IMG/VR virus record: IMGVR_UViG_3300010399_000032
From: a virus
Reading direction: 5' to 3' (one strand)
DNA: 64,000 bases
How positions within the stretch are numbered: position 1 is the stretch's first letter; the number at the start of each line of letters is the position of its first letter. Positions 1,393 through 2,067 of the stretch are shown piece after piece. The position numbers were made by a program, and so were the translations under genes. Under the pieces are notes generated by a model. It saw only the letters and a list, made by a program, of their open reading frames with translations. It was not told where the DNA came from and made no database searches.

Positions 1393-2067
1393 CTACCAAA
1401 CCTTTTCCATGTGACCGTTCAGGAATTCTTTCACTCGACATGTTTTACCTGTTATATGATTAGTTACACGGTCATTTTGAAATTGGATGGTAATAATTTT
1501 GTCTCCCCGTTCACCTGAACCCAATTTGTCCTTTTTATCTTTTGCACGTATTTCAGAAACATTTCTTTCCTCCTGGCGTGCGATTCTGGCCGCCAGCGCA
1601 ATTCGTGCATCACGTTCATTATTGGCCCGGCTACGAGATTGACGCGATTCTGACATTCCTGTGACTGGATCTGTAACCCGGACAGAATTCTGGGATTTAT
1701 TCCTATGTTGCCCACCTGCTCCGGTACCGGAGAAGAAAACACATTCAAAGCGAGAGGATATGTTTTCAATTGGGAGAAAGGATGGACTCGCTTCATTTAA
1801 ACATGCAACCGTTACGGTGGAGGTATGGACCCGACCTTTGCGCTCAGTTGGTGGCACTCGCTGAATTCGGATACCACCATTTTGGTTATCAAGGAGCGAT
1901 AAATCTTTTCCATCAAAAGATAATATTACACCTCTCCCCGCAGGGAGTCAAGTGATTTCCCAACCCTGGAGAAAAGCCAATTTCTCATAGGCTTTTGCTA
2001 GGTCAGTTACGAATAATTCCGAATCTTTACCACCTTCAGCCGGCAGGATGTGTACTGTACGTTTCAT
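1393..2067 (-). CDS. RF1-type peptide chain release factor homologue lacking domain 1, with an in-frame UGA at codon 40 (1948-1950)
   Basis: ATG 2067 gives MKRTVHILPAEGGKDSELFVTDLAKAYEKLAFLQGWEIT*LPAG...GGIRIQRVPPTERKGRVHTSTVTVA...SGTGAGGQHRNK; PxT and GGQ motifs; both sides of the TGA are in one frame and RF-like; gene ends in TAG. Confidence 0.88.

Follow-up and report, generated by a model that had tools for sequence, protein, structure and literature searches.

How is a release-factor (RF) gene expressed when a stop codon stands in its own reading frame, and is such a stop a defect or a control element? The question is raised by IMG/VR virus record IMGVR_UViG_3300010399_000032, a stretch of phage DNA of 64,000 nucleotides (nt), here called the window, in which a short RF1-type release-factor gene is interrupted by one in-frame TGA. 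Comparison with homologous genes indicates that this TGA is a conserved, selected and programmed feature, and neither an error nor a sign of decay. The reading that we favor, with moderate confidence, is programmed zero-frame read-through of the UGA, which would link the output of a short RF1-type factor to RF2. The features of the gene are collected in Table 1.

The open reading frame (ORF) as called with code 11 starts at GTG 1857 and extends over 1393..1857, giving a protein of 154 amino acids (aa). An earlier note on this DNA had claimed that the same frame extends beyond this start to an ATG at 2067, and the sequence confirms it: the TGA at codon 40 (1950-1948) is the sole interruption between the ATG and the terminal TAG. 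The ATG (2067-2065) overlaps, as ATGA, the TGA (2066-2064) with which the upstream ORF (2064..2258) ends. The codons at the interruption, or gate, read ATC ACT TGA CTC, with ACU in place of CUU. Past the gate the +1 frame (GAC TCC CTG CGG GGA GAG GTG TAA) runs for 7 codons before it closes, and the -1 frame for 12. Since both alternative frames are closed and CUU is missing, a shift of the prfB type is excluded for this gene and zero-frame decoding is required, as the earlier note had concluded from the +1 frame. A +1 or -1 frameshift was accordingly ruled out as a candidate, the frames closing within 7-12 codons and the homology continuing in frame 0.

The read-through product of 224 aa (P0001) matches the Pfam family PCRF (PF03462) over residues 5-87 (E 6.5e-14), unbroken across the stop, and the domain 3 family RF-1 (PF00472) over residues 107-204 (E 1.2e-13). 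Its match to the NCBIfam RF1 model (1e-42) begins at profile position 108 of 347, so that domain 1, which in release factors contacts RF3 and the L11 stalk, is absent. The profiles thus agree with the earlier description of a 224-aa product that lacks domain 1 and keeps PPT and GGQ. The RF1 equivalog cutoffs are missed (146 and 141 bits versus 400 and 423 for TIGR00019 and NF001859), and by these scores the factor is to be classed as an RF1-derived short paralogue, not as prfA itself. Residues P72, P73 and T74 are invariant in an alignment of 59 sequences (A3), as are the flanking RIQRV and HTS motifs; the PxT motif, a conserved Gln and HTS are marks of the RF1 type. An AlphaFold model made from 59 sequences has a predicted local distance difference test (pLDDT) score of 84.5, and its top Foldseek matches are structures of ribosome-bound RF1, with template modeling scores (TMq) of 0.87-0.89. 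From the PxT motif alone, the factor is expected to be specific for UAA and UAG, not for UGA.

In its size and its lack of domain 1 the factor resembles PrfH, the release-factor homologue that is paired with RtcB2, from which it differs in keeping PxT. Identity with PrfH was rejected: the PrfH model TIGR03072 gives 38.7 bits, below its cutoff of 166.65, over residues 106-190 (the GGQ domain) only, whereas the RF1 models give 141-146 bits over domains 2-4. Relatives in the family score 36-81 bits against the PrfH model, also below cutoff. No RtcB partner is present among the 10 longest ORFs of the window (at least 363 aa), which have other PHROG functions, and the ORFs that adjoin the RF gene (64, 83 and 80 aa) are without a Pfam match where examined.

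Homologues were assembled from 10 loci found by exact-protein look-ups, from 80 of 332 IMG/VR relatives and from the window, and comprise 75 distinct genes. A scan of IMG/VR with the single protein had given no close relative; the relatives were found by an alignment-based scan. A single internal stop, without exception TGA, is present in each of the 75 genes. The gate is at codon 36 in 67 genes, at codon 35 in one, and at codon 40 in seven, the window included. In the alignment, the codon-35/36 gate (68 of 75) occupies the position at which RF1 has a conserved Trp in domain 2 (GW). The clade of seven has this residue, Trp36, encoded as TGG and has the TGA four codons downstream, and codon 40 is TGA also in the six lineages other than the window, which are 47-60% identical. 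A contig from another run, whose protein is 99% identical, has the same split into 39 aa and 154 aa. Together the 75 genes contain 162 TGG codons, as against one TGA per gene.

The segment 5' of the gate is saturated in synonymous differences across the homologues (proportion pS 0.76-0.85), whereas the proportion of nonsynonymous differences (pN) is 0.22-0.27, a pN/pS of about 0.3. Saturated pS together with low pN upstream indicates that the N-terminal segment is translated in the same frame and is under constraint. The earlier note had named as a check whether the UGA is kept in homologues with flanks under purifying selection; the UGA is kept, and the flank upstream of it is under such selection. 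Its central proposal, programmed read-through, is borne out to the extent that the sequences point to a conserved zero-frame gate with RF domains continuing past the stop. Phylogenetic reconstruction places a single, fully supported branch between the codon-36 and codon-40 states; in a larger tree the codon-40 clade lies among codon-36 sequences, with supports of about 80. This topology suggests that in the codon-40 clade the gate was relocated, and not lost or drifted, and a relocated gate would argue that the stop itself is what selection keeps.

All 75 homologues start with ATG, and an SD-like (Shine-Dalgarno-like) 4-mer lies upstream of it in 67. The base 3' of the gate is A in 58 genes, G in 11, C in 6 and U in none, while the bases after ordinary terminal TGAs of flanking ORFs are A 113, T 88 (27%), C 83 and G 47. 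The lack of U after the gate fits an avoidance of strong termination contexts, a comparison that is confounded by shared ancestry and by the choice of the next amino acid. C after UGA, the context in the window, makes a weak stop (PMC12421855).

The earlier note had also described a hairpin context. A stem-loop, CTCCC-TGCG-GGGAG, does lie directly 3' of the TGA in the window, where pairing of ACUU with AGGU lengthens the stem; its folding energy is -12.7 kcal/mol (z -2.46), and 2 of 200 shuffled sequences fold as well. What is not supported is the idea of a stimulator shared with the relatives: the CTCCC/GGGAG stem was not found in the six clade relatives of the window gene, and stems differ among subclades. 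The consensus of 49 ungapped sequences of the codon-36 group is a 4-bp CGCC/GGCG stem, which has no compensatory pairs in those sequences. Ranked by stability among in-gene windows, the 48 nt from the TGA onward do fall in the top 10% in 53% of the genes. From the geometry of the ribosome, a hairpin that begins at +4 would already lie within the mRNA channel when the UGA is in the A site. A stimulatory role of the hairpin is unproven.

Further scans covered one genome per prokaryote species and, in a second scan of IMG/VR, were seeded with members from huge phages; relatives confirmed by tblastn number in the hundreds in each of the two IMG/VR scans. Zero-frame TGA genes are also present on contigs of metagenome-assembled genomes (MAGs) labelled Sphingomonas, Sphingobium and Pseudobdellovibrionaceae, and on a 307-kb Cupriavidus plasmid. 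A sister clade of 33 loci, mostly from Myxococcota but including Thiobacillus, Achromobacter and the chromosome of Minicystis rosea, has a gate of another kind. Its N-terminal ORF ends in CTT-TGA (24 loci) or CTT-TAG (9), and the remainder of the gene is in the +1 frame. Among 32 frameshift loci examined, CTT precedes the stop in all, C follows it in 27, and an SD-like 4-mer lies 3-14 nt upstream in 26. These features mark the gate of the sister clade as, in all appearance, a prfB-like cassette in an RF1-type gene, at a different position. The genes themselves match RF1 models best and do not reach the PrfH cutoff. A joint tree divides, at branches with 99% support, into a read-through half and a frameshift half, and within the latter zero-frame TGA genes interleave with frameshift genes at the same site. 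In Myxococcota, cassettes with an SD-like element and CTT-TGA-C or CTT-TAG-C can be read at loci L128 (Minicystis rosea, about 5860-6516), L109, L111, L118, L125, L130, L132, L135 and L144. Arrays of about 40 tRNA genes embed the +1-gated RF gene in L103 (1897-9428), a scaffold of Thiobacillus denitrificans DSM 12475, and in L117 (448-6357), a Chloroflexota MAG.

More distant family members, interrupted by one or two in-frame TGAs, are present in the huge phages LR756501, LR745206, LR756504 and LR756502 (GenBank). The second IMG/VR scan yielded 75 distinct genes, of which 46 have one TGA, 5 have TGA+TGA, 2 have TGA+TAG, one has TAG, 3 are ungated and one is shifted, with 17 of the 75 outside the classes of the motif search. 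Loci with double stops are L168 (LR756501), L170 (LR745206), L188-L190, L193, L197, L199 and L200; their stops are about 8-13 codons apart and mostly TGA+TGA, those of L197 and L200 being TGA+TAG. Because two stops in succession would make the yield of a passive leak very low, they suggest a more efficient decoder in those phages. Local recoding of TGA around the double-TGA genes was considered and rejected, as 49 kb of two huge phages looks standard-coded. Judged from these genes, gating by an internal stop is the rule in the family, with several seemingly interchangeable implementations: a UGA at the Trp codon, a UGA four codons later or further downstream, double stops, and a +1 cassette with UGA or UAG.

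These observations can be combined in the following scheme. The phage would carry, in its tRNA-gene region, a stand-alone RF1-type factor consisting of the decoding domains 2/4 and the GGQ domain 3. Translation would start at ATG 2067, and most ribosomes would end at the UGA of codon 40 by the action of host RF2, releasing a 39-residue peptide. A minority would read the UGA in frame, with a near-cognate tRNA-Trp(CCA) of the host or of the phage most likely inserting Trp, and so make the 224-residue factor. In bacteria UGA classically leaks by way of near-cognate tRNA-Trp(CCA), and insertion of Trp would restore the native Trp in the 68 genes with a codon-35/36 gate. As read-through at the weak UGA-C context would compete with RF2, the yield of factor should be inverse to the efficiency of UGA termination, rising when UGA termination is slow and falling when RF2 is plentiful. 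The factor would read UAA and UAG, and more of it would relieve RF2 of UAA termination. Trp as the inserted residue, RF2 as the sensed variable and the physiological role are the parts of this scheme that we infer. The coupling to RF2 is plausible but unproven, and its strongest indirect support is the prfB-like cassette of the sister clade, taken by analogy with prfB, for which the response of the cassette to RF2 concentration is established (PMC12421855).

Several observations weigh against this scheme. TGA and TAG alternate between sister sequences in the frameshift half of the tree; UAG in 9 of 33 cassettes and in a few phage genes implies that the gate is not specific to RF2 across the family. 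Double-gated relatives from huge phages exist (five TGA+TGA and two TGA+TAG), and six members have no gate (L095, L098 and L099; L205, L206 and L213), nor has LR756511 (L169). The search of the window phage for a tRNA with anticodon UCA covers 64 kb, and such a tRNA could lie elsewhere in its genome. The window phage also encodes an amber-suppressor tRNA with anticodon CUA (5495-5572, minus strand; labelled 'Pyl' by ARAGORN; Rfam 36.8 bits), which an RF1-type factor encoded 3.5 kb away would oppose, and for this the scheme gives no account. CUA tRNAs of a similar kind are found in a complete relative, G002 (363408-363482), and in L053. TAG ends just 9 of the 109 ORFs of the window, the RF gene among them.

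Alternatively, the UGA could be read efficiently by an agent of the phage, either an unrecognised opal suppressor or a variant of tRNA-Trp(CCA), and the factor would then appear only once the phage tRNA set is expressed. This is unlikely but has points in its favor. The tRNA-Trp of the window (9113-9183), missed by default ARAGORN and recovered with relaxed thresholds, has an anticodon stem that a C31.C39 mismatch at its bottom shortens to 4 bp, as well as an A where U8 is usual and A24, the Hirsh change in tRNA-Trp (PMC13092985). Three of nine phage tRNA-Trp genes near RF genes have a 4-bp anticodon stem (two bottom-unpinned, one top-unpinned), versus 8.9% of tRNA-Trp in bacteria, and UGA read-through in Escherichia coli rises about 2.5-fold with a top-unpinned 4-bp-stem tRNA-Trp (PMC13092985, in which phages and release factors are unmentioned). 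Double-gated relatives would be hard to express by passive leak, and in L103 a tRNA-Trp(CCA) (5841-5916) lies directly upstream of the RF gene. On the other side, the mismatch in the window tRNA is at the bottom of the stem, a form outside the tests of PMC13092985, and G002 and most of the other phages have a canonical 5-bp tRNA-Trp stem; with three of nine genes, a 4-bp stem was rejected as a general rule for phage tRNA-Trp. The anticodon UCA is absent from the 682 tRNAs around the RF genes, from the 48 tRNAs of G002 and from the 30-31 of the window.

The use of TGA elsewhere in these phages bears on the same point. TGA ends 43 of the 109 ORFs of the window (39%), often in ATGA overlaps, and UAA ends 52%; it also ends 331 of 970 ORFs that flank the homologues. 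G002 (364,247 bp with terminal repeats, GC content 41%) is standard-coded at 88-92% coverage, and TGA ends 199 of its 483 ORFs; it has 3 pairs of same-frame ORFs split by TGA, one of them apparently the RF gene. TGA is otherwise an ordinary stop in these phages, ending 34-41% of ORFs, and an efficient decoder of UGA would therefore extend many of their own proteins. A reading of the window in code 4 or code 15 was rejected, since its long ORFs are unchanged and TGA ends 43 of the 109.

A more specific proposal makes the factor and the phage tRNA set one switch, in which a tRNA-Trp(CCA) variant with the 4-bp stem and A24 opens the UGA gate; we regard it as quite doubtful. If it were true, RF1-type termination would rise after the phage tRNAs accumulate, so that termination would change in mid-infection and the phage's own amber suppressor would be counteracted, with the gate acting as a private UGA=Trp channel for this one gene and not as a passive leak.

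It is similarly improbable that the stop is a pure attenuator, which would hold a potentially harmful factor at a very low, constant dose without sensing anything. Over-expressed release factors do lower fitness (PMC12421855), and gates made of either UGA or UAG, as in the frameshift clade, suit a generic throttle. A weak ribosome-binding site would suffice for that purpose, yet an SD-like motif precedes the start in 67 of the 75 homologues. The gate has moreover been kept, moved or re-formed at several positions and by two mechanisms, and a cassette of the prfB type responds by its construction to the level of release factor.

The remaining explanations are far less probable. On many contigs the gene-caller annotation consists of a 39-aa ORF and another ORF downstream of it, as would be expected if a 39-residue peptide and a separately initiated C-terminal protein were the real products of a split gene. 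We consider this very unlikely: the first in-frame start past the gate lies anywhere from 3 to 148 codons downstream and is preceded by an SD-like motif in 8 of the 75 genes, and in the window it is the GTG of codon 71, inside the decoding domain just before PPT. Starts so scattered argue that reinitiation is not the design. Insertion of selenocysteine, with the adjacent hairpin as a bacterial selenocysteine insertion sequence, would account for the stem-loop directly after the UGA in the window and for the unusually stable segment after the TGA in about half of the relatives. Its probability is nevertheless negligible, since a scan of the window at Rfam gathering thresholds gives tRNAs only, the hairpins vary between clades without covariation, the gate mostly replaces a structural Trp and not a catalytic residue, and no tRNA-Sec (UCA) is present in the window or the related loci. 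A sequencing error, a recent nonsense mutation or a decaying pseudogene, although a single G-to-A change makes TGA from TGG and gene callers give only the 154-aa tail, can be set aside, because the TGA persists in every distinct homologue despite saturated synonymous divergence, none of the 75 has a second lesion, and an independent run gave the same split.

Several known systems resemble the gene in part. As in prfB, the gene of RF2, a class-I release-factor gene is broken early by an in-frame UGA in a weak context, at which decoding would compete with RF2. The window gene differs from prfB in being decoded in the zero frame, with ACU instead of CUU and a +1 frame that closes after 7 codons; in encoding a factor of the RF1 type (PPT); in having its gate in domain 2, not domain 1; and in being phage-borne. 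The combination of an RF1-type factor with a UGA gate implies cross-regulation by RF2 and not autoregulation. A programmed frameshift has not been reported for prfA, nor UAG for prfB motifs (PMC12421855). A viral class-I factor with internal stops, involving both frameshift and read-through, is known from Mimivirus and Megavirus (PMC3521657), and that recoding was read by its authors as autoregulation (PMC3521657). The giant-virus gene belongs to the eRF1 family (eukaryotic/archaeal), is found in viruses of amoebae and is not homologous, whereas the window gene is of the bacterial RF1 type and has a single UGA.

Jade phages likewise combine an RF1-type factor with phage tRNAs, UGA being read as Trp and termination at UAA and UAG being reinforced (bioRxiv 10.1101/2021.08.26.457843). 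There, however, TGA is recoded throughout the late genes, with a UCA suppressor tRNA and a tryptophanyl-tRNA synthetase, and RF1 is in the standard code; in the window about 40% of ORFs end normally in TGA, a UCA tRNA was not found, and the one in-frame TGA interrupts the RF gene itself. RF-1 genes that travel with large tRNA arrays on mobile DNA are also known from mycobacteria and their phages (PMC5966550); these are likened to the window gene by gene context, not by homology, and no recoding is reported for them (PMC5966550). Full-text searches and the papers cited here gave no account of RF1-type genes gated by UGA read-through or by a +1 cassette.

Release-factor genes gated by a stop are textbook matter for RF2 (prfB) and have been shown once in giant viruses, while those of the RF1 type are considered ungated (PMC12421855). 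The short RF1-type factors described here form a family that is widespread in phages, huge phages, a Cupriavidus plasmid and myxobacterial genomes, and that is almost always gated. Should the gate sense termination capacity, phages would possess, next to their tRNA arrays, a feedback device for tuning termination, and such viral control of termination could be tested directly by simple reporters. The gate also affects annotation. The database proteins P0003 and P0005-P0060 are code-4 translations (TGA=W), mostly from contigs of about 1 kb, and P0003 reproduces its record only with TGA=W; where these genes lie on long contigs, the annotation gives truncated ORFs of 154-192 aa. Since callers either truncate these genes or apply code 4, public protein databases hold wrong versions of them.

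Table 1. Features of the release-factor gene and of a tRNA gene in the window.
Feature	Coordinates	Strand	Remarks
Short RF1-type release-factor gene, complete	1393..2067	-	224 codons including the gate; terminal TAG at 1395-1393
Shine-Dalgarno-like AGGTGA	2071..2076	-	3 nt 5' of the ATG (sequence)
Codons 1-39, 5' of the gate	1951..2067	-	Initial strand and helix of RF domain 2, with the AEGG motif
TGG, Trp36, conserved Trp of RF1 domain 2 (G-W)	1960..1962	-	TGA gate in 68 of 75 relatives
In-frame TGA, codon 40, followed by C; putative expression gate	1948..1950	-	
Predicted stem-loop enclosing the stop	1929..1954	-	Outer stem 1954-1950/1933-1929; inner stem 1947-1943/1938-1934; loop 1942-1939
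PPT, PxT 'anticodon' of RF1-type factors, residues 72-74	1846..1854	-	
GGQ catalytic motif, residues 118-120	1708..1716	-	
tRNA-Trp(CCA), candidate near-cognate UGA decoder	9113..9183	-	Rfam tRNA 45.1 bits; putative role

The long ORFs of the window are all on the minus strand. Its phage genes include those for a family-B-type DNA polymerase (22356-24911), a DnaB-like helicase, a UvsX-like recombinase and an SbcC-like nuclease, and 24 kb of the window gave no megablast match among GenBank phages. The first 15 kb contain a tRNA array of 29 genes found by ARAGORN and one more found by Rfam (30-31 tRNA genes depending on the method), and the RF gene sits within this array.

Some minor features of the array and its surroundings may be recorded. 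With relaxed thresholds ARAGORN reports an 82-nt tRNA-like sequence at 4333-4414 (minus strand) with anticodon UUA, like that of an ochre suppressor; its acceptor stem and T arm are good and its CCA end is encoded, but it has no Rfam gathering match. At 2604-2789 (minus strand) two long tRNA calls are adjacent, Ile UAU of 94 nt and Met CAU of 92 nt; homologues of this pair adjoin the RF gene in L002 and L004, and they may hold inserts or long variable regions. Three small ORFs of 64, 78 and 75 aa at 13153-13851 (minus strand) share one frame and are parted by single TGAs; they may represent either three paralogues or one more gene interrupted by TGA. An ORF at 8109-8738 (minus strand), inside the array, resembles GIY-YIG/NUMOD3 homing endonucleases, and a 219-aa ORF at 6014-6673 (minus strand) is without a Pfam match at E 0.001.

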